Virus record (IMG/VR): IMGVR_UViG_3300033146_004404
Location: 64,001-128,000 of that record
Source of the DNA: a virus
Lineage: Duplodnaviria; Heunggongvirae; Uroviricota; Caudoviricetes
Length of the DNA stretch: 64,000 nucleotides
Direction: 5' to 3' (one strand)
Below the pieces are notes generated by a model, which ran no database searches, was not told the origin of the DNA, and worked only from the letters and a program-made list of their open reading frames with translations. Below are positions 33,820 through 49,233 of this stretch, piece after piece. Position 1 is the first letter of the stretch, and each line of letters opens with the position of its first letter. Position numbers and translations under genes: made by a program.

Positions 33820-33830
33820 ACAGAGGAGGC

Positions 33831-34457
33831 TTATTTAACTAACTTTGGATAAGAGAAATGGTTAGATACAATTCTAAAGAATGCATACATCCCTTTGAAT
33901 TCTTTTATTTCTCCATAGTGCCTAAATCCTAGCCAACTGAAAGGAACTTTTGTAACAAGATCTCTAGTACTTGTTACTATTAGAATTTTCTTAAGTCTAT
34001 CTTCAAGCACCTTACTGTTTTCAGTTGTAAATACTCTAGGACAACCAAATACAATCGTGTCAGCTTCAACGCCATAATTGAAAAATATATCCTCATGTGC
34101 TAAAACTGAAAGAGCTGCTCCTTGAGAGAATCCTCTTATTTTAATTGAGTATCCGTCTTTTAAAGCTTTCTCAGCCTTCTCGTGAACCTTATCTCTCACA
34201 GAATGATACTTCTTTATGAACCCTCTGTGAACTTTGAATTTCTCTTTCATTTCTTTGTATGGCTCTTTACCAGTCCTAAAATTCTGCCACCAATCCATGA
34301 AGCTTCCACTTCCCTGAAATGAAATTGTCATACTTAATTGTCTTATATTATATACAAAATTAACTTCTGTATCTGTATCTGTATTTACATGATTCCATTG
34401 AAAGTCATGTGCGTCATCCCACGCCTCTAATAAATTTAGTTTATCTGTATAAATCAT
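33831..34457 (-). CDS. class 3 lipase (alpha/beta hydrolase)
   Basis: SFQGS, VHRGF, nucleophile GFSQG, FGCPRV, DLVTKVP, C-terminal His. Confidence 0.85.
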   Translation of the reverse strand: MIYTDKLNLLEAWDDAHDFQWNHVNTDTDTEVNFVYNIRQLSMTISFQGSGSFMDWWQNFRTGKEPYKEMKEKFKVHRGFIKKYHSVRDKVHEKAEKALKDGYSIKIRGFSQGAALSVLAHEDIFFNYGVEADTIVFGCPRVFTTENSKVLEDRLKKILIVTSTRDLVTKVPFSWLGFRHYGEIKEFKGMYAFFRIVSNHFSYPKLVK

Positions 34458-35205
34458 CAGTAACTACTCTCCTTTCTGTCACACCTATGTCATCTGGCGT
34501 ATCAATGCTAAGCCCTATATGTCTTATCTTTGCTAGATTTAAACCAAAAGGAATAAATTTGTTTTGTTCTAAACTTTCTAAATCTGCATTGATATCTTTT
34601 GCCCACAATCTCTTACCGTACTTATTAAAAATCTCCTTTGGAAATATAAAGAGACCTATGTGTCTCTTATAACTTGAGAGTGGATGTTTCATTCCACTCT
34701 TACTGGCAGGTATTACTGCCCTTGACGTATAAAGAACTCTTTTGTTCTTATCTACAATCTTACAAGTATTTATACTATCTATATCTTTATAGTCATAAAA
34801 TTTGCTAAACAACGTAGTGATCATATCAGTTGGATGATTCTTCACCTTCTTCCAAACTTTATTAACTTCTTCTGGATCTATTGACGGCTCATCAATAGGC
34901 AGCGAAATATATGTATTATATCCCTTTAGATTTTCTGCCTTACTTGCATAATAAACCCTCTCTGTTCCACATGTCATCTCACTTGATGTTAATACAAATT
35001 CAACTTCTTCTCTTTCACAAATTTCAATTACTCTTTGATCTTCTTTATCACTTGTAACTGCTATCTTACTAGCGAAACTAAACTTCTTTGCTATTCTTAT
35101 AGAGGTTTCTAATAGAGTTCTCCTTCTATAAATTGCTAATGCTTTCTCTGGAAATCTTGTACTATCTAATCTAAACGGAATTATAACACATACTGAATTA
35201 CTCAT
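34441..35205 (-). CDS. kdsB: KdsB-like acylneuraminate/3-deoxy-manno-octulosonate cytidylyltransferase
   Basis: IIPFRLDSTRFPEKAL, GTERV, DEP, HIGLFIF, LESLEQ, IDTPDD. Confidence 0.75.
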   Translation of the reverse strand: MSNSVCVIIPFRLDSTRFPEKALAIYRRRTLLETSIRIAKKFSFASKIAVTSDKEDQRVIEICEREEVEFVLTSSEMTCGTERVYYASKAENLKGYNTYISLPIDEPSIDPEEVNKVWKKVKNHPTDMITTLFSKFYDYKDIDSINTCKIVDKNKRVLYTSRAVIPASKSGMKHPLSSYKRHIGLFIFPKEIFNKYGKRLWAKDINADLESLEQNKFIPFGLNLAKIRHIGLSIDTPDDIGVTERRVVTDDLYR

Positions 35206-35208
35206 CTC

Positions 35209-36111
35209 CTACATCCTTTCATAGTTTGTTGAAGTAAGGCCAAGCCTTTTCTTCTTTTCATACTTACTATTATATATGATAACACTTTCATCATTATCAT
35301 ATAACTGATCACATTTACCACAAAGTAAATTCATGTAAGCTCCACTATGAAAACTCTCTATCTCTTTCATCATTTTACTCTCAAAAACCTCTTCTATAGT
35401 TTGACTTTTCAGGTCGCCAAGTAACAACAAACCATTAAAATCAAAACAACACATGTTAATTGTACCATCAACCTGTATCTGCAATGGCCCATTTTTCGGG
35501 CGCCCGCACGTAGTTTTGGTTGTGGCTCCTTTTCTATATGTCTTCCAAGAACTCCAGTTATGAACCTTCCACACTTCAATTAAATCAACGTAGCTCTTGA
35601 AGTATTTTTCTAAGAGCTTTGCTTTGTATAGATCAGGTTCTATTTGATCTGCTGTAAGTATAAACTTCGTATTCTTTCTCTTAGATCCAAAGTTAGTAAT
35701 GAACTGAAATGCATTCAAGTAACTTTTTTGACTTGATCCTGTTATTTCTACATACTCCTCAACACCTATGTAATGAAAGGAAACTCTAACACTTTCTATA
35801 TCAGCTTCAATTAATTGTTCTACCATCTCTTCTGTTATGCAAGAACCATTAGTAAGAATATTTACTTTGTAGCCATTCTCTTGAAGTATTTTAATCTTAT
35901 CGAAGATGTCAATATCTAGGAACGGCTCTCCCATTCCTGATAGAGTAACTGTTTCTATTTGAAGAGGAAGTTTAAACACTAACTCCTCAAATATTTCATT
36001 AGACATCATAGTTCGACCTCTCTTAAAACCTGATGTGTTTAAAGGACAAAAAATACAATTGTGATTACATACAGTACTTATTTCTATCCTTGCTTCTTTT
36101 GAAGTTGTCAA
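35209..36111 (-). CDS. radical SAM protein with twitch (short SPASM) domain
   Basis: CNHNCIFC, GMGEP, C-terminal CGRP...GTINMCC...CGKCD; likely TTG start 36111 with AGGAG RBS (ORF track 36183). Confidence 0.9.
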   Translation of the reverse strand: MTTSKEARIEISTVCNHNCIFCPLNTSGFKRGRTMMSNEIFEELVFKLPLQIETVTLSGMGEPFLDIDIFDKIKILQENGYKVNILTNGSCITEEMVEQLIEADIESVRVSFHYIGVEEYVEITGSSQKSYLNAFQFITNFGSKRKNTKFILTADQIEPDLYKAKLLEKYFKSYVDLIEVWKVHNWSSWKTYRKGATTKTTCGRPKNGPLQIQVDGTINMCCFDFNGLLLLGDLKSQTIEEVFESKMMKEIESFHSGAYMNLLCGKCDQLYDNDESVIIYNSKYEKKKRLGLTSTNYERM

Positions 36112-37133
36112 TTCATTACTCCTGTCACTACATGTATTACCTGTCTCATATAACAATCTAACCCTATTGATACACGGATCCAATCTTTCATTATATCACA
36201 ATCAAACTCTGTCCTGATAGCTATCAGATAATTCTCAAGCAACTCTTTTCTTATTATCTCTTTGTTCTCTTCTCCAACTTTAAGTAATACAAAATTGGCA
36301 TAAGTAACTCTAGCATAATCAAGTTTTTTAAACTCTCTTCTCCATTCATTTACTTGGTGAAGATTATAAGTACAGTCTCCACCAAAACGTATTTCGTTGA
36401 TTACAGCTTCACTACAAGCAACTGAGTTCACTTCTTGCATCGGTCTATACTGTCTTAATAAATCAATATTTTCTTTACTTGATCTTATACAACCGAGCCT
36501 TATGCCGGCTAGGCCATGGCTCTTTGAGAAGGAATTTATTAATACAACATTCTCTTCAAGAGTTTGATTCATGTAGTGAAGAAAATTAACACCTAGGTCA
36601 GACCAAAGATAATAGTCATAGTAAGTTAAATCTAATACTAATGTCACATTGTTTTCTTTAGCTGCTTGATAAACAGGATAAAACTCTTTAAGCGTTGGCA
36701 TGAATCCTGTTGGATTGTCTGGCAATATTAATAAACAAAACGCTAGCTCGTCACTATATTTCTCAATGTGATCTACAAGAAGCTCTGCATAAGATTCCTT
36801 ATTAAGGTCTTCATCATATCTAATCTTAATAGGAAGTATATTAAACTCGTCTTCAAATACCTCAAGCATACCAAATGAAGGAAACATCCTTAACACTTTA
36901 CTTTTATTTGCTGAAGTAAAGGTTCTATAACAATTTCTTAATGCTTCTTCAGCTCCTCTAGTTAATAAGAGATTATCTTTTCTGCAATTGTACTTATCTG
37001 TTAACGTTTTATACATAGGATAAGTATAAGGATAATCCTTATATGGTCCATACGGAGCTTGGTTGTTATCGAGTCGAACAATTTCTTCTTCAATTAATTT
37101 ATCTTTTTTTACGATAGGTCTTTCTATATTCAT
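36108..37133 (-). CDS. PLP-dependent class I/II aminotransferase (HisC/CobD-like)
   Basis: RLDNNQAP, LTRGAEEAL, PDNPTG, DLTY, SFSKSHGLAGIRLG (PLP lysine). Confidence 0.88.
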   Translation of the reverse strand: MNIERPIVKKDKLIEEEIVRLDNNQAPYGPYKDYPYTYPMYKTLTDKYNCRKDNLLLTRGAEEALRNCYRTFTSANKSKVLRMFPSFGMLEVFEDEFNILPIKIRYDEDLNKESYAELLVDHIEKYSDELAFCLLILPDNPTGFMPTLKEFYPVYQAAKENNVTLVLDLTYYDYYLWSDLGVNFLHYMNQTLEENVVLINSFSKSHGLAGIRLGCIRSSKENIDLLRQYRPMQEVNSVACSEAVINEIRFGGDCTYNLHQVNEWRREFKKLDYARVTYANFVLLKVGEENKEIIRKELLENYLIAIRTEFDCDIMKDWIRVSIGLDCYMRQVIHVVTGVMN

Positions 37134-37138
37134 TCTTA

Positions 37139-37167
37139 ATTATACCACATTATTCTTTTTTTGTCAA
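37139..37167 (-). promoter_or_regulatory. sigma70-type promoter (copy 3 of 4) inside the radical SAM island
   Basis: TTGACA-AAAAAAGAATAATGTGG-TATAAT, identical to 13772-13800. Confidence 0.9.
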
Positions 37168-37916
37168 GGTTTTTTAAAACCAGCAAGATCTCCACGAACA
37201 TCACATTTAGAACAATGTGAATTTTCTCTTCCATTCTCTCTAAACTTTCTCATGTTTTCACCATACCAAATATCAATAATACTTTCTTTATTTGTATCGC
37301 CAATAATTCCTTCTTTGTTGAAATCTTGGCAGCACGGCATAACCCTTCCGTCATAATCAACTGTCATAGAATAATGAGGATACATACATTCTGTCTTTAA
37401 TGGGAGATCTTCTTTAGTTTCATAAACTCCACCTCTGTTATTTAAAAACTCTAAATTACTGAACCTATCTATCACCTGAACTTGAGATGAGAAGCCATCC
37501 CACTTATCATACATTTCTAAAGAATAAGCTGATACTCTAATTGAATCAACAAAGTCATTAGTTGCTGATCTTTCTGTTAATAACAATCCATTTGTATTAA
37601 CTATTATATAACTCTTTGGTAGAAGCATTCTTGCTGTGATTATCATTCCTTTAAAGTCAGGATGCAATAATGGTTCTGAGAATCCTGAGAATACTATCAT
37701 CCCATTATAATTTCTATCTGTGTCATGAACTTCATATAATATCTTATGAAACAATTCCATGTCTAAGTAAGCTCTTCTCGGAATAAAATTTCTGTTCCCT
37801 GTTGGACAGAACTCACACTTCATGTTGCAGTAATTAGTTAGAGAAAACTCTAACATCCTGAATAAACTACTTTCTACTTCTATTATTTCTTTTCTACTTT
37901 CAAAACTATTTATCAT
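37164..37916 (-). CDS. radical SAM protein with twitch domain
   Basis: CNMKCEFC, GFSEP, CMYP...GRVMPCC...CSKCD. Confidence 0.9.
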   Translation of the reverse strand: MINSFESRKEIIEVESSLFRMLEFSLTNYCNMKCEFCPTGNRNFIPRRAYLDMELFHKILYEVHDTDRNYNGMIVFSGFSEPLLHPDFKGMIITARMLLPKSYIIVNTNGLLLTERSATNDFVDSIRVSAYSLEMYDKWDGFSSQVQVIDRFSNLEFLNNRGGVYETKEDLPLKTECMYPHYSMTVDYDGRVMPCCQDFNKEGIIGDTNKESIIDIWYGENMRKFRENGRENSHCSKCDVRGDLAGFKKP

Positions 37917-37925
37917 CAGAATTTC

Positions 37926-37993
37926 CTACTTAGTAGAAATCTCCGATTTCTACTATATTATTAATGAGAACTACAGTTCTCTTTAGTCAGAAA
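37926..37993. repeat. ~68-bp double-hairpin element, copy A
   Basis: Near-identical to reverse complement of 63823-63889; hairpins TAGTAGAAATC-TCC-GATTTCTACTA and GAGAAC-TACA-GTTCTC. Confidence 0.85.
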
Positions 37994-39007
37994 TATTTTT
38001 CTCTTTTCAAGATATTTATAAATCTCTTTATATATATGACAGGTGATCTTATCGTCTATTCCATACTCACCATTTTTATTATAATAGAACGCAGAACATC
38101 CAAAGTTGCATATATCTTTAGCATAACAGGTATCACATCCTATTGCTTTAACATACTCGTTCTTCTTTTCTATAAGAGAAATATATTTCTGAATTTGTTT
38201 CAGTTCAAGAAAATCTTTTCCTGTCTTGATTGGTATTGGTATATCATAGTTAGGACATAATGTTTCAGTGCCATCAGGTTCAATAGATATCATTGACATC
38301 CCAGCACCACAGAACATTGTATCACATGTACTCTTATTATTTGTTTTTCCATTTATTATATCATCAAATAATTCATAGATCTCAACGAAAGATGTATAGC
38401 CAGTATTGATATACTCATTTAAGAATAATTCATATGCCTTCTCAAACAAATTATCTATATAATCATTGGCTATAAAATTTACACAGTTCGCACCAAGTTG
38501 AGTTATTCCCTTTAGCTCATTAATGTTATCGTCATTGATTACAGTAGAGATAGTATAGTTGATATTGTATTTCTTTAATAGCTCAATTTTATCTAGGATA
38601 ACAGAGTTCTTTACTTCTCTACTTCTCTCATTACTTGGGCCATCATAGCTTACACCTAATGATACATTAAACCTAGAGAGTAGAACAGCCATTTCCTCAT
38701 CAATCAATACAGTGTTAGTCTGTAGATTAACTGAGTGGTTTATGTCAGTTAAAGTATTCTCTATATAGAGTAGGATCCTAGACAGCAGATTACTTCCAAT
38801 CATTAATGGCTCGCCGCCGAATAATGTAATGAAGATTCTGTCTGTTCTACTGTTCTTTATATAGTCAGCGTGAAGATGATCTATTGTGTTTTTTAATATA
38901 GGGAAAGTAATAGTCTCTTTGCTCTTATGTTTTTGGTAACAATAAGAGCAATTGAGATTGCATTGATTGGTTAGTCTAATTGTAAGTTGCTTTACTTGAC
39001 TAAACAC
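37961..39007 (-). CDS. radical SAM/SPASM maturase
   Basis: CNLNCSYC, FGGEP, SPASM CDTMFCGAG...C...CDTCYAKDICNFGC...C. Confidence 0.92.
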   Translation of the reverse strand: MFSQVKQLTIRLTNQCNLNCSYCYQKHKSKETITFPILKNTIDHLHADYIKNSRTDRIFITLFGGEPLMIGSNLLSRILLYIENTLTDINHSVNLQTNTVLIDEEMAVLLSRFNVSLGVSYDGPSNERSREVKNSVILDKIELLKKYNINYTISTVINDDNINELKGITQLGANCVNFIANDYIDNLFEKAYELFLNEYINTGYTSFVEIYELFDDIINGKTNNKSTCDTMFCGAGMSMISIEPDGTETLCPNYDIPIPIKTGKDFLELKQIQKYISLIEKKNEYVKAIGCDTCYAKDICNFGCSAFYYNKNGEYGIDDKITCHIYKEIYKYLEKRKIFLTKENCSSH

Positions 39008-41211
39008 TAGTAAAGGAAAGTAGGTTTTATAACATAGTCTACCTGTTTCTCCAGTAAAGGATTATAAAATTTATTCTTCTTATTTATATGCCTATCAAAT
39101 GTATTGCGTGGCATATTCCAATATCCTTTTATATAATCTCTTGTGACATTCCTTGTTGTTATAGAATCATAAGATATTTTATTTTCCATACTAGAAAACA
39201 TTGCAGAGTTAGCTAAGACTAACATTTCATCTATTATATCCATCACGCCTCCTGAGCCTATGTCTAAATCAACATACACTCGTGTTGCGCTTAGAGATTC
39301 ATTTATAATAATTGTTAACAAGTCCTTTACTTCTTCGTCTTCATTATAACTAAAGAACATATAATAATTATGTATCTTAGATAAGTCTTCTGATACTTTA
39401 GAGAACATTTGATTATTTAATTTATATACATTCTTCTTGTATAAGTAAAAGATCTCGTCTCTATATCTATCTATTAAGTCTTTCATGTTCCATTTATTGT
39501 TATCTATATTATATCGTATTTTAAGATTATTCTTGACAGAGATTAATGAAAGTACTCTAACATATAACATATTAGTAGGTTGTTTTTTTAAAAGAAAGTG
39601 TTCTATTCTTTTTTCAAGGTTCTCTATCAACTGCTCTATAAATAAATTGTTCTTAATCCAATGAGTTTCTATTGTTAAGTATCTTGTAAGAGTATAGGAT
39701 CTCGTAACAATCTTTATGTTATCGTATTCCATCCCTAAAAACTTATTCTTTTCTATTGTGTCTTTATTATAATTCTCAGCTTTAAGAGTTATATTAAAAG
39801 GCTCATAGAAAGTATTAATACTTTCTATAGCAAAGTATTTTTTAAAAGAATCTATATTATCTAACTTGAGATCTTTCTCTATTGCATCTAGTGATGCATT
39901 CTCTATACAAAACTTTTTGAATGTTTCATTGAGCTTCTTTTTTTCTTTACTTATATCTCTAAAAATAAAGAACTTCTCATATAACTTCAATGACAACTTA
40001 ATAAATAAATCAAGATGTGAATACTGAAAAGCTAGTACATAGACTTCATCTAATAATTCCCAGATGCCTTCATTGTAAGAATTAACTTTCATTGTTTTAA
40101 AAGCAACAACAAATAACTTAGAAACTAAATCTTTATTGTGTATATTTTCTTTTATTAGAACAAGTAACCTACTATAGAACTTAAGATCGCTTCTCCCTGA
40201 GAATATAAAGCATGTTTCAAAAATTTTTCTGTTATCAGCATCAAATAATTCCAGATAATCTTCTAATGAATAGAAGCTCTCTACAACAGTTTCATTGATC
40301 TGGACACAATCTTCAATTAACTCCTCAAAGTCTTGTGAGCGGCTCTTAACGTCGTACTCCTGATACTTAAAGAACTCTTTATAATCTTTTAACGTTTCTA
40401 CAGAAGACTTCTTTTTAACCTCATTAGTGTATTCTTTATTGTATTTATTAAACTCTCCTATTAAGTATTGAGCTTCAAAATAATTGTCACCTGTTATAAT
40501 ATACTTAATGTCTTTAGTCCAATCTATAAAGTTCTTTTCACCTGTTTTTATTTCTATTAAGTCTTCTTGTACAGGATCTAACCTTATCTCTTCATTCTCT
40601 ATATAATACAATGCGTCATTGTTATAGCTAGAGTCTATGAATGTAAAGTTTGTAATGCCTTTAAGAAACTCTGTGAACTTAGAGTTGTTTGATATACTCA
40701 TTCCTGGATCAAGAAGCTCTTCTATCTTTTTCTTAGCTATATATAAAATAGAGCTTATTATACTTTCATTTGTTATATATTCTTCTCTACTTTGTAATTC
40801 CTTTATTCTCTTAGCAGCCAACGAGATAATAGATTGATCATTATCTACAGTTATATAGTTACTGTACTTTGAAAGAAAAAGAACTATGTTTTCACTATAG
40901 TTCTCTGTTACAACCATCTCTTCATTGTAATATAAATTAAAGAGTTCTCTTAACAAGAAGAATGTTTCATCTAAAATAAAAGACTCATTATCTCCTACTC
41001 TTTTACACGCTACCTTATTTAATCCTGAGATATTACAACAATTCAATGATAATATATTATCATTCACTTTGACATCAAAGTAATTAGCAGGATAAATATA
41101 TATTTCTTCTGTCTCATTTACTGCTTTGATATACTTATCACGACAGCAATAGAAATACTCTATGTTATTTATTAACTCTGCTGACTTATTGCTATAGATA
41201 TACTTAATCAT
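39007..41211 (-). CDS. 734-aa hypothetical protein in radical SAM island
   Basis: Translationally coupled on both sides; no recognisable catalytic motif. Confidence 0.7.
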   Translation of the reverse strand: MIKYIYSNKSAELINNIEYFYCCRDKYIKAVNETEEIYIYPANYFDVKVNDNILSLNCCNISGLNKVACKRVGDNESFILDETFFLLRELFNLYYNEEMVVTENYSENIVLFLSKYSNYITVDNDQSIISLAAKRIKELQSREEYITNESIISSILYIAKKKIEELLDPGMSISNNSKFTEFLKGITNFTFIDSSYNNDALYYIENEEIRLDPVQEDLIEIKTGEKNFIDWTKDIKYIITGDNYFEAQYLIGEFNKYNKEYTNEVKKKSSVETLKDYKEFFKYQEYDVKSRSQDFEELIEDCVQINETVVESFYSLEDYLELFDADNRKIFETCFIFSGRSDLKFYSRLLVLIKENIHNKDLVSKLFVVAFKTMKVNSYNEGIWELLDEVYVLAFQYSHLDLFIKLSLKLYEKFFIFRDISKEKKKLNETFKKFCIENASLDAIEKDLKLDNIDSFKKYFAIESINTFYEPFNITLKAENYNKDTIEKNKFLGMEYDNIKIVTRSYTLTRYLTIETHWIKNNLFIEQLIENLEKRIEHFLLKKQPTNMLYVRVLSLISVKNNLKIRYNIDNNKWNMKDLIDRYRDEIFYLYKKNVYKLNNQMFSKVSEDLSKIHNYYMFFSYNEDEEVKDLLTIIINESLSATRVYVDLDIGSGGVMDIIDEMLVLANSAMFSSMENKISYDSITTRNVTRDYIKGYWNMPRNTFDRHINKKNKFYNPLLEKQVDYVIKPTFLY

Positions 41212-42187: not shown

Positions 42188-43446
42188 TTTTTCTCCATTA
42201 TAATTTGATTATCAACAATACTTAAAACACGCCCTTGATTCTCTATATATCTAGCAAGTGATGAATTTTTGTTTATATGATAGATAGTTCCACCAAATTC
42301 TATTTTTCTGTATTTCTTTATATACGTATCTATTATTTTTCTCTCGCTCTTTAATAAATACTTATAAAGATTCTTATAGATAGGACAAACTAATTCTGTT
42401 CTTATCCCTGTTTTACCTGTTTTGCTAAATTTAAATGCCATACATCCATGATCACATATTTTATCTGCATAACATGTATCACATTCATTCTCTATGACAT
42501 GTTTGTGTTTGTCGTATACAAAGTCTGTATATCTCTTTATGTGCTGCAAGTCAAGAAAATCATTGTCATCTATATGCCCAACATAAGCTTCTTTGAAATC
42601 CTCACTCCATCTTCCACAAATATGAAACTTACCATCAGGGCTCATTTCTATTACTCTAACTCCACCGCCACATATCTTCTCCCCACAGTTAGAATGATAG
42701 TCTAAATCACATAAAGATAACCTTGTAATAAGAAACTTCTTTATGAGTCTATCAACATTAGTGTCGTTAAACACTCCAGTTTGTATATAACTGTCTATCG
42801 CTGGCTTTAAAGAATATAAGAAGAAATCATACCCGCTTACCTCACCCCCAATGTTATTGACGTCTTCGGCGTAATTAACCTTAAGGGGCATGTTGTATTT
42901 CTCTTTGATATACTCTATGCTCTCATTGATATTGTCTATGTTGTGTTCTCCTAATACCATTATCAATCCAAAGCTTATATTATAAGCTTTTAGCATATCA
43001 AACTTAACTTCCATTGTATTCTCTAAAAACTTTCCTCTAGCGTCGTTGCCACCTTCTATTCCATCAAAGGATGCTCCTACCCCTACGCTGTAACGTGCGA
43101 ATAGGGCACATAGCTCTTCTGTGAGTAAGGTTAGGTTGGTCTGCATGTCAGTTACTATACTAAGGTGATATCTCTTATTAGTATAGTCTATATATTTGAA
43201 CATCTTGGCTAATAACGGAAGCTCTAAGAGCAATGGTTCACCGCCGTGTAGTGTGATAGAGAATCGACTGTTGTGCTTTCCAATTACTGTTAGATCCTTA
43301 GCGATCTTATCAACAGCTTTTTTGAACATATCTAGTGAAATTCTTTCACCTTTAAAAGAGTCTTTATTTTTTATATAACAATACTCACACCTTAAGTTAC
43401 AATCTCTTGTTGTCTTTAGAATAAGTTGATTAGCATTTTGAAACAT
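42184..43446 (-). CDS. radical SAM/SPASM maturase
   Basis: CNLRCEYC, HGGEP, CGEKICGGG...C...CDTCYADKICDHGC...C. Confidence 0.92.
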   Translation of the reverse strand: MFQNANQLILKTTRDCNLRCEYCYIKNKDSFKGERISLDMFKKAVDKIAKDLTVIGKHNSRFSITLHGGEPLLLELPLLAKMFKYIDYTNKRYHLSIVTDMQTNLTLLTEELCALFARYSVGVGASFDGIEGGNDARGKFLENTMEVKFDMLKAYNISFGLIMVLGEHNIDNINESIEYIKEKYNMPLKVNYAEDVNNIGGEVSGYDFFLYSLKPAIDSYIQTGVFNDTNVDRLIKKFLITRLSLCDLDYHSNCGEKICGGGVRVIEMSPDGKFHICGRWSEDFKEAYVGHIDDNDFLDLQHIKRYTDFVYDKHKHVIENECDTCYADKICDHGCMAFKFSKTGKTGIRTELVCPIYKNLYKYLLKSERKIIDTYIKKYRKIEFGGTIYHINKNSSLARYIENQGRVLSIVDNQIIMEKK

Positions 43447-43449
43447 AGA

Positions 43450-43653
43450 TTAACTCTTATTCATATTGAAGTCAATAGCTTTAACAAATTTATTAAAACA
43501 TTCTTGGCAGACTACTTCTTTGGTTTCCATTGACATGTTACCTATAGATTCCCAAGTTTCAATACTTGTTTCACGTTCAGCTTCTATTTTAAAGCCTATA
43601 AATAATTTTAATTCTTTGATTTTTTTGTTGCATCTTGTACATTCATTTATCAT
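43450..43653 (-). CDS. small CxxC-x40-CxxC protein
   Basis: CTRC...CQEC; paralog of 46204..46401 and of the C-terminus of 47628..48755. Confidence 0.75.
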   Translation of the reverse strand: MINECTRCNKKIKELKLFIGFKIEAERETSIETWESIGNMSMETKEVVCQECFNKFVKAIDFNMNKS

Positions 43654-44738
43654 TCTGTTATCTCCTTAGCGATATCTGTTAATAGTAATGAGATTTTACA
43701 TAAATTAGGATTAAGCTCTTCCAGACTGTTTGTATGTTGTTCATGCCCTGCAACGCATCCACCATTACACCAATAAGCAGCTTTACAATTTTCACAATCT
43801 TTATTTACTTTAAATTTATTAAAATCTGTTCTAGCTTTCATTACATCAAAGAAAGAATTATTAGTATATCCATTGAAGATATCTCCATAGAAATAATTAA
43901 AGTCTTTAGGGGCTTCTTCAAGATAAGAAAACATTTGATGACAAAATATCAATTGACCATTAGGGGAAATGGACACATTGCTTTGTGGGGTAAAACAAAA
44001 GTGATTGGAATCATTATCTTTATTTAAAGTTCTTAGAAGACCATTGAATAGTGGCTGCTTCTTAACTTTGAATAAATAGATCATTTGGTTATATAAAGAT
44101 TCTATCATTTCATCTGTAATCTCCATAGAGAAATTGAATTGTATATTTGGATGCAATCCTATTTTTACTAAGAAGTCATAACTATCAGCAAAGTCTTTAT
44201 AGTTATTCTCATGAACTACGAATAGTCCTGCTACTTGCTTATTGTATTGATGTGATTTAGACATCAGCTCAGGTAATCTTTTCATAGTGTCATTCCAAGA
44301 ACCACTCTTATCTATTTTATATCTATTCCTGTCATGAACTTCTCTTTTACCATCTAAAGATACACCTACTTGTATATTGTTTTCTATTAAGAAATCTATA
44401 TCTTTAGAATCAAAGAGAGTGAGATTAGTATTAAGATGAAGACGAAAGTCTATATTAGTTTTCTTTAACTCTTCTATAAGGCTAGTAACAAAAGTCCAAT
44501 TGACTGAAGGTTCTCCGCCGAATAGAGAGATCTCTATTTGTTCATCTGCTTTAGTTATTTCTATAAATTTTATAAGGTCAGGTATCATTTCTATTTGCAT
44601 GGAAGTATTAGCTTTTTTATCTGTTACTTTAGATCTGTCACAGTAGTGGTCGTCATAGCAATACTTGCACCTTAGATTACATTCTTCTGTTATTATCAAT
44701 TCGTAATAGTTAAGGCTTACTTCTTCTGGTATAAACAT
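43650..44738 (-). CDS. radical SAM/SPASM maturase
   Basis: CNLRCKYC, FGGEP, CFTPQ...C...CENCKAAYWCNGGC...C. Confidence 0.92.
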   Translation of the reverse strand: MFIPEEVSLNYYELIITEECNLRCKYCYDDHYCDRSKVTDKKANTSMQIEMIPDLIKFIEITKADEQIEISLFGGEPSVNWTFVTSLIEELKKTNIDFRLHLNTNLTLFDSKDIDFLIENNIQVGVSLDGKREVHDRNRYKIDKSGSWNDTMKRLPELMSKSHQYNKQVAGLFVVHENNYKDFADSYDFLVKIGLHPNIQFNFSMEITDEMIESLYNQMIYLFKVKKQPLFNGLLRTLNKDNDSNHFCFTPQSNVSISPNGQLIFCHQMFSYLEEAPKDFNYFYGDIFNGYTNNSFFDVMKARTDFNKFKVNKDCENCKAAYWCNGGCVAGHEQHTNSLEELNPNLCKISLLLTDIAKEITE

Positions 44739-44749
44739 TTATTATCCTT

Positions 44750-45499
44750 TTAAAGAGACAATAAGTCCTTTAACTCTTTTATTTCATTTAAGTATAAAGC
44801 TTTTGCCTCTTCACTGAAAGTGTTGTCGATTGAATATGAGAAACAATTAGTACAGTCAGCTCCGTGAAGAGTATTGAAGTTGTAACAAGTTCCACATTCT
44901 TTATTATTTATGCCTTGGAAGTTATCATAAAGAATCATATCAGGTAATAATATAATCTCTGGAACTACCTGTAATAGATAAGGAGTAAGTAATTCAAAGT
45001 CTTCTGGAAATTCTTCTTCTTTGTATTCTAACACTTTATTTAAATATTCTTTGAATAATTCAAGGTCTTCAATATTGTATGATTGAAGTTCTTCTATGAA
45101 ATCTTTTTTGTAATGAACTACATACTCTACATTATCTATAGAAGATTTAATGTCAAGGAATGTTCTCCACTCCTCTATATATAATTCTATTACTATTTTA
45201 CTTATAGAGTCTTTTAATTTACTGTAGTTTAATTCAACTGCTTGATTATTAAAATCTTTTTCTTTTATTCTAACAATAGAATCTCTCATATTGATGAATG
45301 AAAGAGATGATTTACTGTTTAGGTTAAGGACTATTCTGTTGTTTGCAGAATGTATTGAGAAAGCAGAGAGTAATTTTTCATAGTCAAATAAGTGTTCTCC
45401 GTAGAATAAAAGTTCTTCTTGATTGTTCTTGAGAAACTCTTTTAATGTTTCACTGAAGTTTACTTCTTGATCGTTCGTCTTAGGTAATATTATTAACAT
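44750..45499 (-). CDS. degenerate radical-SAM/SPASM-like protein lacking CxxxCxxC
   Basis: FYGEHL resembles GGEPL, LLPD resembles ISPDG, retains CGTC...CTNC; SAM-cluster cysteines absent. Confidence 0.5.
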   Translation of the reverse strand: MLIILPKTNDQEVNFSETLKEFLKNNQEELLFYGEHLFDYEKLLSAFSIHSANNRIVLNLNSKSSLSFINMRDSIVRIKEKDFNNQAVELNYSKLKDSISKIVIELYIEEWRTFLDIKSSIDNVEYVVHYKKDFIEELQSYNIEDLELFKEYLNKVLEYKEEEFPEDFELLTPYLLQVVPEIILLPDMILYDNFQGINNKECGTCYNFNTLHGADCTNCFSYSIDNTFSEEAKALYLNEIKELKDLLSL

Positions 45500-45502
45500 G
45501 TC

Positions 45503-46204
45503 TTAACCGTTTGAATAATTAACATGATTAGAATGGCTAGCGTGAGTTGCATTAGTCCCACTAAACGTATTCGTATAAGCATGCCAAGCAGTAATATCTT
45601 TTGTCCTTAATTCACTAACAGCTGAAGCTAATCCTTCTAATTCTTGCTTATCTATCTTATTAGCATTTTCTTCCTTCGCTTCATTAATTAAAGTAGGGTT
45701 ACCTAATTGTCCTAATAGATCATTGAACTGCGCTCCTAGATTTTTTACTTTATAAGCAGTAGCTAATTCATCGTCATCAAAAGTTAAAGCTGATGCAGCG
45801 AGAGTAACTCCATCTCCCTTCTGCGAAATTAAAGTATTTAAATTAGTTTGAACTTCTTCTAGCATATCACCTAAATTGTATCCTACCTTTTCACTATCTA
45901 ATACTTTAACAGAACCATTATCGTCGTCATCCCAATATGTCCAATTAAAATCTGTTTGTGCTAGTGCTCCACTTGTTATAGAATAACTTTTATGATTAGA
46001 GTAGCTATAATGTATAGCACAGTCATCGATATTATTTATGTAAATAACGTGATTGTAATGACTGTTATCGCTGTACCCTATTCTCCAGCAGTTATTGTCA
46101 TAATCTGTATAATCTGTATATGAATATTTATAACAGTATAAAGAGTTAGTATGAGTTCTACTATCACTTCCTTGTGCATAATTAAAGTATTCACTATATC
46201 CCAT
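45503..46204 (-). CDS. candidate radical-SAM substrate: His/Tyr-X-Asn/Asp/Ser repeat protein
   Basis: Likely start 46204 (TAATG overlap; ORF track 46237); N-term YTD-YTD-YDN, YSD, HYN, YSN-HKS; C-term HAS-HSN-HVN-YSN. Confidence 0.7.
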   Translation of the reverse strand: MGYSEYFNYAQGSDSRTHTNSLYCYKYSYTDYTDYDNNCWRIGYSDNSHYNHVIYINNIDDCAIHYSYSNHKSYSITSGALAQTDFNWTYWDDDDNGSVKVLDSEKVGYNLGDMLEEVQTNLNTLISQKGDGVTLAASALTFDDDELATAYKVKNLGAQFNDLLGQLGNPTLINEAKEENANKIDKQELEGLASAVSELRTKDITAWHAYTNTFSGTNATHASHSNHVNYSNG

Positions 46205-46401
46205 TATTCTTCCTTTGTATTCATATTGATAAAACATTCTTGAAACTTATCAAAGCAGCTAGAACAAACATTCTCATGGTCTAATACTGTGTTCTTAGAT
46301 ATCGCTTTAGATTTATCTAATATTATCTTTTCAGTTTCTATTTCTAACTCCATTTTTATACTAAAATCTTTTATTTCTTTATTGCATATGTCACATATCA
46401 C
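46204..46401 (-). CDS. small CxxC-x39-CxxC protein
   Basis: CDIC...CSSC; paralog of 43450..43653. Confidence 0.75.
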   Translation of the reverse strand: MICDICNKEIKDFSIKMELEIETEKIILDKSKAISKNTVLDHENVCSSCFDKFQECFINMNTKEE

Positions 46402-47635
46402 TACTTATCTCCAATGAATTCATCGTCGCACTTATTTTATTCTTAATGTTAAACTTCTTCAAACTCTTTATCTTATCATTAGATAGAACTTTAAAGTTAT
46501 TATCAACGCATGACTGTAATATAGAGTCTAAATTCTTTAGTATATAAGAATAAAAGCTCTTGTAATATCCACATATTAAGACTTGATCTATTCCATGTTT
46601 TTTGTGTTTAGAATAATAAAATGCGTCACATCCATGTGAACAAATATAACTCGCATAACATGTATCACATCCTGTTTCTTTATATGTCTTATCAGTAATC
46701 TTTCCTTTTTCTATAACTTTCTTTAATTGATATAATCCAAGGAAATCATAATCTAATGCATTCATCATATAAATTTCAGGAAAGCTTTCGCTGTGTCTAT
46801 CACAGTAATTAATTGTTCCGTTAGGTTCAATTCCTATCATAGATATGCCTGTGCCACACCATCTACTATCACATCCAGACTTTGAAGTTGTTTCATGTTC
46901 TGTTAATATATCTATTAGAGTTGACATAAGTAATGCTTGTATAGAACTATCTTTTGGCTTAATTCCTTCTATAAGATTATCTATTTCAGGCTTAGCTACT
47001 AATTCAAAAAACTCTTTTCCTGTTAGCTCAATCTTACTCTCTGCGTCTATCATCTCTTCTACAAAGTTTATCTTGTAGCTTCCTGATATTTTATCCATAT
47101 ATCTTTTCGTTGTTTCTATCTTATCGACATTGTCTTTAGTAGCAATTCCTATAAATCCAAAGTCTACTTTGCTATCTTCTAATAAGGTAAACTTCTCTTC
47201 GAAGAATTCTTGAGAAAAACTACATCTAGCGTTATTAGCTCCATCTATTCCATCAAATGATACTCCTATCTTCACATCAAATTTCTGTAATACTTTAGCT
47301 ATATCATCTGTTAATAATGTTATATTTGATTGACAACCAAAATTATAATTAAGATTGTTCTTGTCAAATACATTCTTCGCATAGTCTAATCTTTTATATA
47401 ACTCTTTTTCTCCTAGTAATAAAACTTCACCGCCGTGGAGAATGAAAGATAATTCTTCATTCTCTTTGCCGCTTACTACTCTCTGCTCTGCTATTCTATC
47501 TGTAATCTTTCTATATAATTCAAAGGATATAAGTTTCCCTTTATCTTCTTCTTTGTCCTTCATAAAACAATAAGAACAATTAAGATTACAATCTTTTGTC
47601 ATCCTGAATATTATTAAGTTAGTAAATCTAAACAT
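46391..47635 (-). CDS. radical SAM/SPASM maturase
   Basis: CNLNCSYC, HGGEV, CDSRWCGTG...C...CDTCYASYICSHGC...C. Confidence 0.92.
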   Translation of the reverse strand: MFRFTNLIIFRMTKDCNLNCSYCFMKDKEEDKGKLISFELYRKITDRIAEQRVVSGKENEELSFILHGGEVLLLGEKELYKRLDYAKNVFDKNNLNYNFGCQSNITLLTDDIAKVLQKFDVKIGVSFDGIDGANNARCSFSQEFFEEKFTLLEDSKVDFGFIGIATKDNVDKIETTKRYMDKISGSYKINFVEEMIDAESKIELTGKEFFELVAKPEIDNLIEGIKPKDSSIQALLMSTLIDILTEHETTSKSGCDSRWCGTGISMIGIEPNGTINYCDRHSESFPEIYMMNALDYDFLGLYQLKKVIEKGKITDKTYKETGCDTCYASYICSHGCDAFYYSKHKKHGIDQVLICGYYKSFYSYILKNLDSILQSCVDNNFKVLSNDKIKSLKKFNIKNKISATMNSLEISSDM

Positions 47636-48755
47636 ATATTTCCTTCACTTTTTCTAATGACTTGTAAAAGTTTTTAGCGCACTCTATACATAAATTTTCT
47701 TTAGAACTCACGTCCCAATTAGGAATGTATTCCCAATCCCATTCATTTCTTAGTCTATGCACTTCCATAGAGAAATTAATATTAGTTTGTATGTCTTCTA
47801 TTTCACTGTGACATTTAGTACAAGTCTTTTTATTTGCACTCTTTATAGGATATAAGTCTAACTTTTTAAAGTATTCAGCGTATTCTTTCCATACTCCAGC
47901 ACATCTATCATTAAATAAACATTCTATGCACTTATTAGACTTTACTTTCTCATTTAAATCATTAGAATTATAATCCTCACATATTCCATCAGCATCAAAA
48001 TTACCATTTCCTTTATTAGCAGGATCAAATCCTTTTCTATCACAACTATTCAATAAAACACTCATGTCTGAGTTTAGTACAATGTCTTGATAAGGATATA
48101 AATAACATATAGGTATTGCTTCAGTCTGGATTAAGTGAGCATAGTTCTTCAAGATGTCTTTGAGAATCGGTTCTAGCTCAGTTAACGAGCATAATACCAT
48201 ATCTCTATTATTCCATGCTTCTCCATTAGGATGAGGGTAAGTCATATTCATTTTTATCCCAGGAGATATTTTCTGTATGTAATCATAAGTCTCTTTTAAA
48301 TAAGGAGCATTCAATCTACTAATAACAGTCTGTGTAGTGCAATCAACATTATACTTCAACAGATTAATAAATCCCTTAATCGTTTTTATCCACATTCCTT
48401 CTTGTCTTACAATCTTATCATGGACATCTTCTCTATGAGAATGTATCGCTATCAATACAGAATCGAGATATTCACTACACTCTTTGGTGAATTGTTCGTT
48501 ATGGAACATAGCACCATTAGTCTGTAAGGAAGTCTTGTGTCCTGTATCTTTAGCGTATTTAAGAAGCTCTATAAAATCTTTTCTTATAGTTGCTTCTCCA
48601 CCTGTAAACCCTACAGAATTATCCAAAGGGATCTTATCTATAACTCTCTTAACTTCATCTGTAGTTAAATCATTTGTATCTCTCTTGTCCGCTACTACAC
48701 AGTGGATACAATCGTTATTACACTTGAATCCTACTTTTAAATCAAATCTACTCAT
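47628..48755 (-). CDS. radical SAM protein (HxsC-like) with fused C-terminal CxxC-x40-CxxC domain
   Basis: CNNDCIHC, TGGEAT, LQTNG, EAIPIC, CIEC...C.G; then CTKC...CIEC domain. HxsC likeness is from recollection of the family pattern. Confidence 0.8.
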   Translation of the reverse strand: MSRFDLKVGFKCNNDCIHCVVADKRDTNDLTTDEVKRVIDKIPLDNSVGFTGGEATIRKDFIELLKYAKDTGHKTSLQTNGAMFHNEQFTKECSEYLDSVLIAIHSHREDVHDKIVRQEGMWIKTIKGFINLLKYNVDCTTQTVISRLNAPYLKETYDYIQKISPGIKMNMTYPHPNGEAWNNRDMVLCSLTELEPILKDILKNYAHLIQTEAIPICYLYPYQDIVLNSDMSVLLNSCDRKGFDPANKGNGNFDADGICEDYNSNDLNEKVKSNKCIECLFNDRCAGVWKEYAEYFKKLDLYPIKSANKKTCTKCHSEIEDIQTNINFSMEVHRLRNEWDWEYIPNWDVSSKENLCIECAKNFYKSLEKVKEIYV

Positions 48756-48762: not shown

Positions 48763-49233
48763 TTATGTCATCATAATGAACATCGCAATCCGCTGCTCGC
48801 TTTTATCAAATTTACTAACAAGCGCTTTTCCCACCACTCGCCCAAAACCTATGTCATACCACCGTTTAACGGTGCATAGACCGTTCTTGCCTGCGATAAG
48901 GAGATCTCCTACTTTACAAGGTTCTGCTATCCTTACATTTACTCTACCTGCTAGCCCTATAGGAACCTTGTGACTCATATTGTCACTGCCTAGTACCATA
49001 CCATAGGTGTCACTATAGACACCTATAACTTTCCTATCTCCACGCTTAGTGCAACGTGTAGCGCCATTTGCGCCTTGAACGATGACATCGCCTGGAATCA
49101 TCAATCGATTATCGAGATTGACTGGAAAGAATTCAGCATAATCATTCCACATCGCACCATAAACTCTATTAGCGGTTAGAGCACCACCTACAATCAAATT
49201 ACCATAAACTGAACTATTACCTAAGACAGCCAT
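48763..49233 (-). CDS. short fibre protein with intramolecular-chaperone/peptidase G2-like autocleavage domain
   Basis: DYAEFF then GDVIV...VIGVYSD...VPIGLAGRVNVR...GDLL...VVGKAL. Confidence 0.7.
   Translation of the reverse strand: MAVLGNSSVYGNLIVGGALTANRVYGAMWNDYAEFFPVNLDNRLMIPGDVIVQGANGATRCTKRGDRKVIGVYSDTYGMVLGSDNMSHKVPIGLAGRVNVRIAEPCKVGDLLIAGKNGLCTVKRWYDIGFGRVVGKALVSKFDKSEQRIAMFIMMT

Follow-up and report, generated by a model that had tools for sequence, protein, structure and literature searches.

The window analysed here, a stretch of 64,000 nucleotides, comes from an uncultured 200-kb phage and carries an island of radical SAM (rSAM) genes embedded among tail-fibre genes. In the island (34441-48755) are genes for eight radical SAM enzymes, each confirmed by Pfam, for small Zn-ribbon partners (two free and one fused) and for a 233-aa triplet-rich protein; all its genes lie on the minus strand, with intergenic gaps of -17 to +60 nt. 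LamG/chaperone fibre genes border it on one side and more fibre genes on the other. From the highest coordinates downwards, the features are:

49235-51430 and 51418-53763: LamG fibres (Pfam)
48763-49233, minus strand: free-standing Peptidase_G2/IMC-like chaperone piece, 156 aa (Pfam, 35.8 bits), immediately upstream of the cassette
47628-48755, minus strand: HxsC-like radical SAM, 375 aa (Pfam Radical_SAM, 63 bits), with a fused C-terminal small Zn-ribbon (residues ~310-375)
46391-47635, minus strand: rSAM-B2, SPASM radical SAM, 414 aa, anSME/YhhB-like (TIGR04085, 36.3 bits, above the cut-off of 27)
46204-46401, minus strand: small CxxC-x39-CxxC Zn-ribbon partner, 65 aa, overlapping the substrate start with its stop
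45503-46204, minus strand: candidate substrate, 233 aa (motif enrichment, 83-representative family, synteny in 12/12 loci, AF2)
44750-45499, minus strand: unknown protein, 249 aa, C-terminal CxxC-x10-CxxC; no Pfam, PHROG or NCBIfam family
43650-44738, minus strand: rSAM-A, SPASM radical SAM, 362 aa, PapB/CteB-like (thioether-type; NCBIfam and PDB matches)
43450-43653, minus strand: small CxxC-x40-CxxC Zn-ribbon partner, 67 aa; homologs in related loci
42184-43446, minus strand: rSAM-B1, SPASM radical SAM, 420 aa, anSME/PapB/YhhB-like (Pfam, NCBIfam and structure matches)
41204-42187, minus strand: rSAM-C, radical SAM, 327 aa, C-terminal CxxCx7CxxxC; the most conserved cassette enzyme
39007-41211, minus strand: F6, 734 aa, mostly helical, conserved in the cassette; homologs in L001, L003, L004, L006 (two copies)
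37961-39007, minus strand: rSAM-B3, divergent third rSAM-B paralog, 348 aa (Pfam Radical_SAM)
37164-37916, minus strand: rSAM-E, short rSAM/SPASM, 250 aa (Pfam SPASM, 55.6 bits); orthologs in L003, L048
37139-37167, minus strand: candidate sigma-70-type promoter, TTGACA-17-TATAAT with TG (12/12 consensus match only)
36108-37133, minus strand: HisC-like class I/II PLP aminotransferase, 341 aa (Pfam Aminotran_1_2, 76.7 bits); orthologs in L003, L006
35209-36183, minus strand: rSAM-D, rSAM/SPASM, about 300 aa (Pfam); orthologs in L003, L004, L006, L048
34441-35205, minus strand: KdsB-like CMP-ulosonic-acid synthetase family protein, 254 aa (Pfam CTP_transf_3, 80.9 bits)
33831-34457, minus strand: class-3 lipase/esterase, 208 aa (Pfam Lipase_3, 76 bits), at the accessory-module end
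30984-33770: tail fibre (PHROG)

Enzymes and partner proteins of the island

The first-pass annotation, made from the sequence alone, had counted eight CxxxCxxC enzymes, and all eight (the HxsC-like protein, rSAM-A, the three rSAM-B paralogs and rSAM-C to rSAM-E) pass the Pfam Radical_SAM cut-off. As to SPASM and HxsC classes, SPASM is above the cut-off in 35209 and 37164 (Pfam) and in 46391 (TIGR04085), slightly under it in 42184 and 43650, and HxsC is the best NCBIfam match of 47628-48755 (105.5 bits, under the 267.9 cut-off). The reaction types given for the window enzymes are guesses, because none of them attains an NCBIfam family cut-off. The small Cys partners it had noticed are real, the third copy forming the C-terminus of 47628-48755. 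On the other hand, the 249-aa product of 44750-45499, taken for a degenerate rSAM, is not confirmed as such (hhalign probability of 0.35% against an rSAM profile); blastp gave no counterpart of it in the related loci. The placement between LamG/chaperone and LRR fibre genes holds by Pfam for the LamG and IMC flanks and by PHROG for the tail fibre, while the LRR part relies on a pattern, the 27-aa BspA/LRR_5-like repeats of a 2468-aa protein for which the Pfam search gave no match. The statement that no leader peptidase is present stands within the island; outside, 11 kb away, lies a marginal Peptidase_C39_2-like gene (22920-23579, 24.2 bits for a cut-off of 24).

Six of the eight rSAMs form the core. 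Their nearest structures and families are the maturases PapB, CteB (5WGG), anSME (4K36), ChlB (9GM3), YhhB and HxsC, instead of the cofactor or DNA-base-modification families that had been named as the contrary outcome. rSAM-A reaches 147 bits with NCBIfam PapB (cut-off 340), and among solved structures CteB 5WGG is closest to it (E 8e-23). The rSAM-B1 family comprises 71 clusters, exclusively metagenomic, with identities of 33-49%; rSAM-B2 falls in a tree clade with L005, L049 and L048 (support 100/98); rSAM-B3, on a long branch, is a paralog of both with an identical C-terminal Cys set, and shares 30-31% identity with rSAM-B of other loci. The core enzymes probably lack a RiPP-recognition domain of their own, judging from the SAM-cluster motif, which lies within the first ~25 residues. 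F6 has no family match and an AF2 pLDDT of 40.

In the window the HxsC-like enzyme carries the small Zn-ribbon as part of its own chain, whereas elsewhere the ribbon is a separate protein; the fused part aligns to free small proteins of L003, L004, L005, L048 and L049. The 43450-43653 product is 32-39% identical to small proteins of L001, L003, L004 and L005, its four Cys being conserved in the copies inspected. Homologs of 46204-46401, which has no aromatic triplets, adjoin rSAM-B in other loci (sequence or blastp match for nine loci).

The two other rSAMs, D and E, whose best matches are MoaA and W-cofactor maturase models, group with the KdsB-like protein (NCBIfam KdsB subfamily, 146.8 bits, under the 193 cut-off; orthologs in L003, L004 and L006), the aminotransferase and the lipase in a recurrent accessory module. 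A class-3 lipase also stands at the cassette end in L004 and L052. The rSAM-D orthologs (42-48% identity) align only from residue 25-28, so that the true start of rSAM-D is probably internal, near residue 25. The candidate promoter ends 5 nt ahead of the ATG of the aminotransferase gene, a start codon without a Shine-Dalgarno.

A triplet-rich candidate substrate and its family

The triplet-repeat protein noticed at first reading is confirmed by motif enrichment: 45503-46204 contains 17 [YH]-x-[NDS] triplets where composition-preserving shuffles give 8.5 +/- 2.3 (at least 17 in 1/5000), and at 7.0 per 100 aa its triplet density exceeds that of the 22 further proteins of the window that were counted (0-2.6). 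Its N-terminal cap carries Tyr/His-x-Asn/Asp/Ser triplets and three Cys, its only ones; its C-terminal cap reads H-A-S-H-S-N-H-V-N-Y-S-N; the middle is a folded core of a beta-hairpin and helices. In the AF2 model the caps have pLDDT < 50 and the core 60-88, a predicted arrangement of disordered caps around a folded core that fits a role of the caps as enzyme substrates.

In direct searches the protein is an apparent orphan. A profile search nevertheless places it in a family with about 83 cluster representatives, of which 61 reach E<=1e-10, and the start codon agrees with the family consensus M-x-Y-S-E-Y-F-N-Y. Triplet enrichment is family-wide (median z 4.0; z>3 in 54/69 members), X3 being Asn, Asp or Ser at about 47% of all aromatic-x-X positions. 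The members, of 200-590 aa, combine a conserved folded core with long, variable caps. The window protein itself shows no fibre domain and no fold match.

Enzyme content follows substrate chemistry

The co-occurrence of substrate and rSAMs in other phages, which the first-pass annotation had proposed to check, is borne out: each of the loci inspected (12/12) lies on a large phage-like contig and has its family member within a cluster of several rSAM genes. The usual order is rSAM-A, substrate, small protein, rSAM-B, rSAM-C. All 12 have the repeat protein and rSAM-B; rSAM-C orthologs (31-48% identity) occur in 9/11 other loci, being absent from L005 and L049 and shorter and more divergent in L054, and none was found in any cultured phage. 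No locus has a protease or exporter in its core. We found no paper describing such a phage cassette.

The enzyme set tracks the chemistry of the substrate. Among these 12 related, and thus phylogenetically non-independent, loci, rSAM-A is present in the eight with substrates of at least 3 Cys and absent from the four with at most one; likewise the HxsC-like enzyme is present in 7/7 loci with at least 7 H-x-[NSD] motifs and absent from 4/5 with at most 4, L001 being the exception. The rSAM-B2 clade is confined to loci having an adjacent HxsC-like gene and His-type caps (His-x-Ser/Asn).

Proposed function and comparison with known systems

That the target is a phage structural protein, as first proposed, receives support from the relatives of the substrate. 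A Peptidase_S74 fibre chaperone domain is present in eight family members tested, and Gly_rich_2 too in two. In six of the seven S74 members inspected the H-x-S cap stops precisely where S74 begins with "SD(K/E/R)xLK", a point that, after the endosialidase-type intramolecular chaperones, we take to be the autocleavage site; since the cap abuts this site, autocleavage would leave the His-x-Ser cap as the C-terminal tip of the mature fibre. An IMC-bearing fibre gene precedes the cassette in the window, L004, L006, L007 and L048 (in L054 it lies downstream, on the opposite strand), and the Peptidase_G2/IMC domain of 48763-49233 is, in those four other loci, the terminal domain of that gene. From these sequence features, the product is most likely a fibre-like virion component with the modified tail as its exposed tip.

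We lean, with some reserve, towards a system of the HXS/triceptide kind that the phage carries for protein maturation, with 45503-46204 as client, and in which the rSAM enzymes most likely cross-link the triplet-rich ends of a fibre-like protein. In the chemistry and site assignment that we infer, the core rSAMs would install radical cross-links in the client tails, as aromatic-to-C-beta rings on the triplets, and form thioethers on the client Cys, with the small Zn-ribbon proteins escorting them in the role of HxsD. Two enzyme sets might be combined in the single island: a "His module" (the HxsC-like::Zn-ribbon protein 47628, rSAM-B2 and small 46204) serving the C-terminal H-x-S/N cap, and a "Tyr/Cys module" (rSAM-A, small 43450, rSAM-B1 and rSAM-C) serving the N-terminal cap, before the protein would be incorporated into the virion. 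The accessory module probably yields a CMP-activated amino-ulosonic acid for further tailoring. If true, this would be a kind of finishing step so far unreported for proteins of virus particles.

The same enzymes and client could instead make an effector, the counterpart of HxsA, for superinfection exclusion or for countering a host HXS-type defence. The only characterised relative, HXS, does mature a protein of His-x-Ser repeats that then acts in the periplasm to block the entry of phage DNA (PMC13128918), the His-type family members come just under the HxsA4 cut-off (48.8 bits vs 55), and 47628 matches HxsC best. However, the client has no peptidoglycan-binding domain (Pfam, NCBIfam) and, by reading, no evident signal peptide at its N-terminus; the genes lie in a co-directional fibre gene array, the relatives bear the fibre domains mentioned above, and HXS is 99.7% confined to Pseudomonadota chromosomes, in the order D-B-C-A. 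We consider this alternative unlikely.

Somewhat less probable still is a client acting as scaffold, its modified caps being cut off as small cyclic peptides or as a cofactor of peptide origin (PQQ, mycofactocin and pearlins being precedents), and the released product then being decorated by the CMP-sugar module. In its favour, PQQ and mycofactocin are both produced from peptide tails by SPASM rSAMs that act with a small partner protein, a Ser hydrolase (the lipase) closes the cassette in the window and L004, sugar genes recur in the cassette and the C39-like gene could be counted as a peptidase; but the cores without protease or exporter, the size and folded core of the clients, some with fibre domains, and caps that are not one fixed core peptide argue against it. 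Least probable of all, the rSAMs would serve small-molecule metabolism, supplying, by an anaerobic pathway, some unusual ulosonic acid or a different sugar for use in LPS or in virion glycosylation, the repeat protein being a mere fibre neighbour: KdsB-like genes in four loci, KdsA-like in L004 and L048, a carbamoyltransferase in L004, TAL/FSA in L048, GT2 in L005, the matches of rSAM-D and rSAM-E and the separate promoter ahead of the accessory module speak for it, yet sugar genes occur in about half of the loci only, the core enzymes resemble peptide maturases and covary with client Cys and His content, and in the window phage neither KdsA, GT2 nor any glycosyltransferase for the CMP-sugar module was found.

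The maturation of a fibre-like protein, which we prefer, can be set against four known cases. The T4-like Campylobacter phages (CP220, CP21), cited at first as a parallel, do have large myovirus genomes containing a number of radical SAM genes, among them one 22% identical to rSAM-A; but the neighbourhood inspected, in CP220, is unrelated, with replication genes and a QueE-like gene beside the rSAMs and no triplet-repeat protein, Zn-ribbon partner, rSAM-B or rSAM-C ortholog. PapB (ranthipeptides) and CteB (SCIFF/sactipeptide) are the best matches of rSAM-A, which accompanies only Cys-rich clients. The distance from the PapB cut-off nevertheless separates them; rSAM-A also probably lacks an N-terminal RRE domain, judging from its CxxxCxxC at residues 20-27, and the client has no Cys-x3-Asp/Glu spacing of the PapA type.

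The bacterial HXS anti-phage system is the closest characterised system, followed by the triceptide cyclophane synthases, the island remaining under the membership cut-offs of both. With the three-residue cyclophane systems (3-CyFE rSAM/SPASM XyeB, GrrM/OscB, FxsB, YhhB, HaaB, HtkB, ChlB; PMC11499958) it shares the aromatic1-X2-X3 logic, including the His/Tyr types HNR, HAA, HTK and YDR, and SPASM rSAMs: rSAM-A and rSAM-B match the YhhB, AmcB, FxsB, GrrM and XyeB models (E 1e-15 to 1e-24), and ChlB is among the nearest solved structures. It differs in scores far under the cut-offs, a cross-link that is putative here, the absence of leader peptide, peptidase and exporter, tens of motifs at both termini of much larger clients, and a viral structural gene context.

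HXS, absent from the first-pass annotation, consists of the effector HxsA, the rSAMs HxsB and HxsC and the small HxsD (NCBIfam TIGR03976-03979; Li et al., Nat Commun 2026, PMC13128918). There too several rSAMs and a small partner mature a whole protein with His-x-Ser-type triplets, not a short peptide, and the partner is tied to the HxsC-type enzyme, by fusion in the window and by pull-down of HxsC with HxsD in HXS (PMC13128918); the family match of 47628-48755 and the His-type client relatives near the HxsA4 cut-off add to the likeness. By contrast, no window component reaches a family cut-off or is homologous to HxsD, and the phage client is repetitive at its two ends, chiefly with Tyr-x-Asn/Asp, and lacks a peptidoglycan-binding domain. 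HXS has two rSAMs in another gene order and its product is a periplasmic effector, not a structural protein, whereas the island has eight rSAMs and is phage-borne within a fibre module, with relatives bearing fibre chaperone domains and an optional CMP-sugar module.

Radical SAM enzymes of the island and their candidate protein client

The genes discussed here lie on the minus strand as follows:

47628-48755, minus strand: HxsC-like radical SAM (rSAM) enzyme
46391-47635, minus strand: rSAM-B2
46204-46401, minus strand: small Zn-ribbon protein
45503-46204, minus strand: client, the 233-aa candidate substrate
43650-44738, minus strand: rSAM-A, PapB/CteB-like
43450-43653, minus strand: small Zn-ribbon protein
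42184-43446, minus strand: rSAM-B1
41204-42187, minus strand: rSAM-C
39007-41211, minus strand: F6 (734 aa)
37961-39007, minus strand: rSAM-B3
37164-37916, minus strand: rSAM-E (accessory module)
36108-37133, minus strand: HisC-like aminotransferase (accessory module)
35209-36183, minus strand: rSAM-D (accessory module)
34441, minus strand: KdsB-like cytidylyltransferase (accessory module)
33831, minus strand: class-3 lipase (accessory module)

The eight rSAM enzymes counted by the first-pass annotation are confirmed: taking the CxxxCxxC motif together with a Pfam score above 29.5 bits as the criterion, eight island proteins have one N-terminal motif each and score 34.6–63.1 bits on Radical_SAM (PF04055). 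The additional “degenerate rSAM” falls away, as this 249-aa protein has no Pfam match and an hhalign probability of 0.35% against an rSAM profile. A SPASM/twitch domain (PF13186/TIGR04085) is found above cut-off in rSAM-D (35209, 32.9 bits), rSAM-E (37164, 55.6) and rSAM-B2 (46391, TIGR04085, 36.3), and just under the cut-off of 21.5 in rSAM-B1 (42184, 19.4 bits) and rSAM-A (43650, 20.2); the proteins at 37961, 41204 and 47628 have no SPASM match, yet each retains 4–8 C-terminal Cys. None of the eight reaches an NCBIfam family cut-off. By resemblance, five are close to SPASM peptide or protein maturases (PapB, anSME, YhhB, QhpD, DynA, CteB, ChlB), one (47628-48755) has HxsC as its best family match, and the two short ones, at 35209 and 37164, match best the tungsten-cofactor and MoaA-type models. 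A similarity to pVip given by PADLOC reduces to the generic rSAM core.

Besides, in two loci, L005 (8013-9950) and L049 (11777-13678), the HxsC-like enzyme and a second radical SAM domain form one fused protein of 633-645 aa, and two further radical SAM genes outside the window (G000:C1:12947-13288 and 33523-33936, both on the plus strand) bring the total of this phage to ten. Single-protein IMG/VR scans with F6 and with the HxsC-like enzyme gave no matches; for F6 the ESM Atlas held nothing, and its AF2 model, built from 6 sequences, is unusable (pLDDT 40.5). The small Zn-ribbon proteins (CxxC-x39/40-CxxC, 65-75 aa) keep their four Cys in every copy read and are devoid of triplets, so that we do not consider them as substrates; a third copy forms a C-terminal fusion on the HxsC-like enzyme of the window.

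Used alone as query, the 233-aa client retrieves nothing by phage tblastn or IMG/VR scan, and only itself in a word-indexed protein search; it seemed an orphan until homologs recognised by their position had been aligned and searched as a profile. Searching with rSAM-B1 (42184-43446) gave a tight family of 71 clusters, all metagenomic, with 33–49% identity. The contigs encoding these relatives bear the same cassette, where a protein of 300-340 aa always stands between the PapB-like enzyme and the small Zn-ribbon gene. BLAST finds no link between these proteins and the window client; they share its build, namely the start M-x-Y-[SN]-E-x-F-N-Y, [YH]-x-[ND] triplets in runs, frequently inside S-H-x-N-Y-x-D-x-C units, the core motifs W-x-x-x-W-x-G-D and I-K-E-I-R-D-N, and a C-terminal cap Y-[ST]-N-H-x-N-Y. 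A profile made of seven of them, scored against 1.84 billion representatives, finds 83 family members (61 at E<=1e-10); thus the client is not an orphan.

The aromatic1-X2-X3 pattern of triceptide precursors is enriched in the window client—17 triplets against 8.5 +/- 2.3 in shuffles—and its in-register runs reach 4, a length matched by 3 of 5000 shuffles. Across the family the median z of this enrichment is 4.0, and X3 is Asn, Asp or Ser at about 47% of the aromatic-x-X positions. The window client has a Tyr/Cys-type cap (triplet tail) at its N-terminus and a His-type cap, H-A-S-H-S-N-H-V-N-Y-S-N, at its C-terminus. Its AF2 model (pLDDT 63) shows disordered caps and, with modest confidence, a core of a beta-hairpin and three helices, for which Foldseek returns no PDB or BFVD match at E<=0.001; in the ESM Atlas the leads, to families of phage fibres, all stay below 0.9. 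The homotrimer prediction of the core, where the fold itself has a pLDDT <40, is evidence neither way.

Covariation of enzymes and client, and the accessory genes

We inspected 12 loci, the window and the phage-like L001, L003-L007, L048, L049, L051, L053 and L054. The client gene lies inside a multi-rSAM cluster in all 12; the candidate substrate and the rSAMs thus co-occur in other phages too, a point on which the first-pass annotation had staked its proposal. In counts that come from related loci rather than from independent events, the PapB/CteB-like rSAM-A occurs at 8/8 loci whose client has at least three Cys and at 0/4 where it has at most one, and the HxsC-like enzyme at 7/7 loci with at least seven H-x-[NSD] motifs in the client, while it is absent from four of the five with four or fewer. 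The exception is L001, with an HxsC-like enzyme despite few H-x-[NSD] motifs; there F6, the first cassette gene, is cut by the contig end and the upstream part is unseen. In the rSAM-B tree, 46391-47635 groups with the copies of L005 and L049 and one copy of L048 (support 100/98), and this clade corresponds exactly to the loci having an rSAM-B beside the HxsC-like gene together with His-x-Ser/Asn client caps. Covariation and tree therefore give the window island the look of two enzyme modules joined around a single client, and the match between enzyme sets and client residues offers directly testable enzyme-to-motif assignments. For rSAM-C, no ortholog appears in the cultured phages of the collection searched; in GTDB genomes it is confined to MAG contigs, which are probably binned phage DNA.

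All or some of the accessory genes recur at the cassette end in L003, L004/L052, L006 and L048, accompanied by KdsA-like (L004, L048), carbamoyltransferase (L004) or TAL/FSA (L048) genes, and in L005 two GT2 genes take their place. About half of the loci lack the module, which makes it one of tailoring rather than part of the core. The predicted cytidylyltransferase at 34441 (CTP_transf_3, 80.9 versus 22.6 in Pfam; best NCBIfam score 146.8 versus 193; TIGR00466, 95.5 versus 155) clearly belongs to the KdsB family, at the level of family only, its sugar not being indicated by the scores. Between rSAM-E and the aminotransferase gene lies the following element:

37139-37167, minus strand: sigma-70 consensus promoter TTGACA-17-TATAAT with extended -10 TG (12/12 match)

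This match overlaps the stop codon of rSAM-E and ends 5 nt before the ATG of the aminotransferase (36108-37133, minus strand), which has no Shine-Dalgarno; such proximity and the lack of Shine-Dalgarno suggest that the CMP-sugar module forms a separately driven, possibly leaderless transcript. BtrN-type rSAM dehydrogenases pair with aminotransferases, and by analogy the product of the accessory module could be a CMP-activated amino-ulosonic acid, formed without oxygen. KdsA and GT2 are absent from the window phage's own genome, and we identified no transferase for the CMP-sugar module. We also observe an 11-bp perfect hairpin at 37931-37955 (TAGTAGAAATC-GGA-GATTTCTACTA), within the 44 nt that separate rSAM-B3 from rSAM-E; the coding strand has no T-run, so that the hairpin may serve in processing or stability.

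Fibre context and fate of the product

The window covers bases 64001-128000 of a 201-kb IMG/VR virus record, estimated 80% complete, which encodes a T4-type major head protein, portal and terminase. All genes between about 53763 and 23576 share the minus strand; they overlap or are separated by tiny gaps, and stand in this order:

first, minus strand: two LamG fibre proteins, one of them at 49235-51430
48763-49233, minus strand: free Peptidase_G2/IMC-like chaperone piece, a separate 156-aa ORF starting 2 nt past the end of the LamG fibre gene 49235-51430
34441-48755, minus strand: the island
next, minus strand: tail-fibre protein (PHROG)
23576-30982, minus strand: 2468-aa protein with repeats of ~27 aa, C-S-S-I-E-T-L-P-V-D-L-F-R-Y-N-T-E-V-T-S-F

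In L004, L006, L007 and L048 the fibre protein itself ends with the IMC/Peptidase_G2-like domain, so that 48763-49233 would either come from the splitting of a gene or encode a chaperone acting in trans. A fibre gene bearing IMC precedes the cassette in these four loci and in the window, and L054 has one on the other strand, just downstream; the L048 cassette precedes a baseplate gene. The repeats of the 2468-aa protein are of BspA/LRR_5 type by their pattern, with no Pfam match; LRR_5 genes likewise adjoin and follow the L051 cassette.

Elsewhere in the window, the ribonucleotide reductase large subunit (58837-62658, minus strand, 1273 aa) has an HNH-endonuclease-like insert near residues 381-441 and the matches of the terminase large subunit (10434-13415, minus strand, 993 aa) are split; both interruptions are likely inteins or homing-endonuclease insertions. 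For the T4 late promoter, the motif TATAAATA is found 22 times where 14 would be expected, and with most copies lying within genes this count is uninformative. No public sequencing runs and no RNA holder are listed for the island.

Peptidase_S74 is above cut-off (27–64 bits, cut-off 22) in eight client-family members tested, two S74-bearing members having Gly_rich_2 as well; these include the clients of L005 and L049, which are Gly_rich_2 plus Peptidase_S74 fibres of 580-586 aa whose N-terminus bears an (S-H-x)n cap. Of seven sequences read, six have a C-terminal His-x-Ser cap that ends exactly where S74 starts, e.g. ...HGSHASSHASS / SDKRLKKNI. We take the Ser of S-D-x-x-L-K to be the autocleavage site, as in the intramolecular chaperones of endosialidase and T5 type, which are released after trimerisation. 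As this site directly follows the cap, in the S74-bearing relatives the cap would, by analogy, end the mature trimeric fibre at its C-terminus; a C-terminal S74 is absent from the window client, and in such stand-alone clients the cap already is the C-terminus.

That the machinery modifies a structural protein of the phage rather than a secreted peptide, as proposed at first, thus gains support from comparative evidence: the S74/Gly_rich_2 relatives and the fibre context. From the sequences we infer a putative cross-linking chemistry for the enzymes and a place on the virion for the client product. We further propose, tentatively and with somewhat more doubt than conviction, that in phages of anoxic habitats an rSAM battery converts floppy Tyr/His/Cys-rich fibre ends into a dense cross-linked, possibly sugar-decorated, host-contacting tip, its modular enzymes being swapped according to a Cys-, Tyr- or His-based tip; such a tip would be the first case of post-translational modification by radical-SAM (RiPP-type) chemistry on a virus particle, and the proposal would imply a shared origin with bacterial HXS.

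Comparison with known systems

Secreted natural products are the known setting of radical SAM peptide chemistry, joined since 2026 by one bacterial anti-phage effector. The same logic now appears in phages, wired into tail-fibre genes, with up to eight enzymes and a conserved protein client, clearly a fibre in its relatives; in the literature searched we found no published description of a phage-borne system of this kind. The rSAM neighbourhood of Campylobacter phage CP220 is unrelated, its adjoining proteins being neither repeat proteins nor Zn ribbons. Should the caps be cross-linked tips of fibres, host recognition would depend on a chemistry invisible to sequence-based prediction of receptor-binding proteins, and the cassettes would be a natural modular toolkit by which a folded protein receives numerous cyclophane or thioether rings.

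The island does not correspond to a canonical RiPP cluster: the client is 233 aa long with repeats from residue 3, and there is no short leader-bearing precursor. The first-pass annotation had noted the lack of a transporter or leader peptidase; this holds for the island and for the 11 related loci. One gene outside the island is of the family of C39-type peptidases, the classic RiPP leader peptidases, by a marginal score:

22920-23579, minus strand: 219-aa protein immediately downstream of the 2468-aa one; Peptidase_C39_2, 24.2 bits for a cut-off of 24

It lies 11 kb from the island, and the related cassettes compared contain no homolog. With the triceptide synthases, the phage client has in common the aromatic-X-X motif logic (PMC11499958); however, the phage system is without leader, peptidase or exporter, and on the 3-CyFE maturase models (XyeB, GrrM/OscB, FxsB, YhhB, AmcB) scores are 48–86 bits for cut-offs of 310–450.

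The closest characterised system is HXS. There, an entire protein bearing His-x-Ser repeats undergoes maturation by two rSAMs with a small partner, one repeat gaining 8 Da, and the mature product blocks phage DNA entry (PMC13128918). The phage system misses every family cut-off of HXS: 47628-48755 reaches 105.5 bits on HxsC (TIGR03977, its best match, cut-off 267.9); on HxsB (TIGR03978, cut-off 370) rSAM-A is the best at 82.9 bits and rSAM-B scores 49–61; on HxsA (TIGR03979 and variants) the window client has no match and the His-type family members P0140, P0148 and P0153 have 35–49 bits on HxsA4 (cut-off 55). It differs also by its enzyme number, gene order and genomic setting, and by a client with caps at both ends and no peptidoglycan-binding domain by Pfam. 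In bacterial HXS the small HxsD binds HxsC (PMC13128918); the small Zn-ribbon proteins have no match to HxsD (TIGR03976) at E<=1, so that their likeness to it, of which the fusion to the HxsC-like enzyme is the sole ground, is one of analogy and not of homology. Nevertheless the phage system has the same logic as HXS and an HxsC-like enzyme; and cross-linked fibre tips, if such the caps are, would provide an evolutionary bridge between a structural system of phages and the HXS defence.
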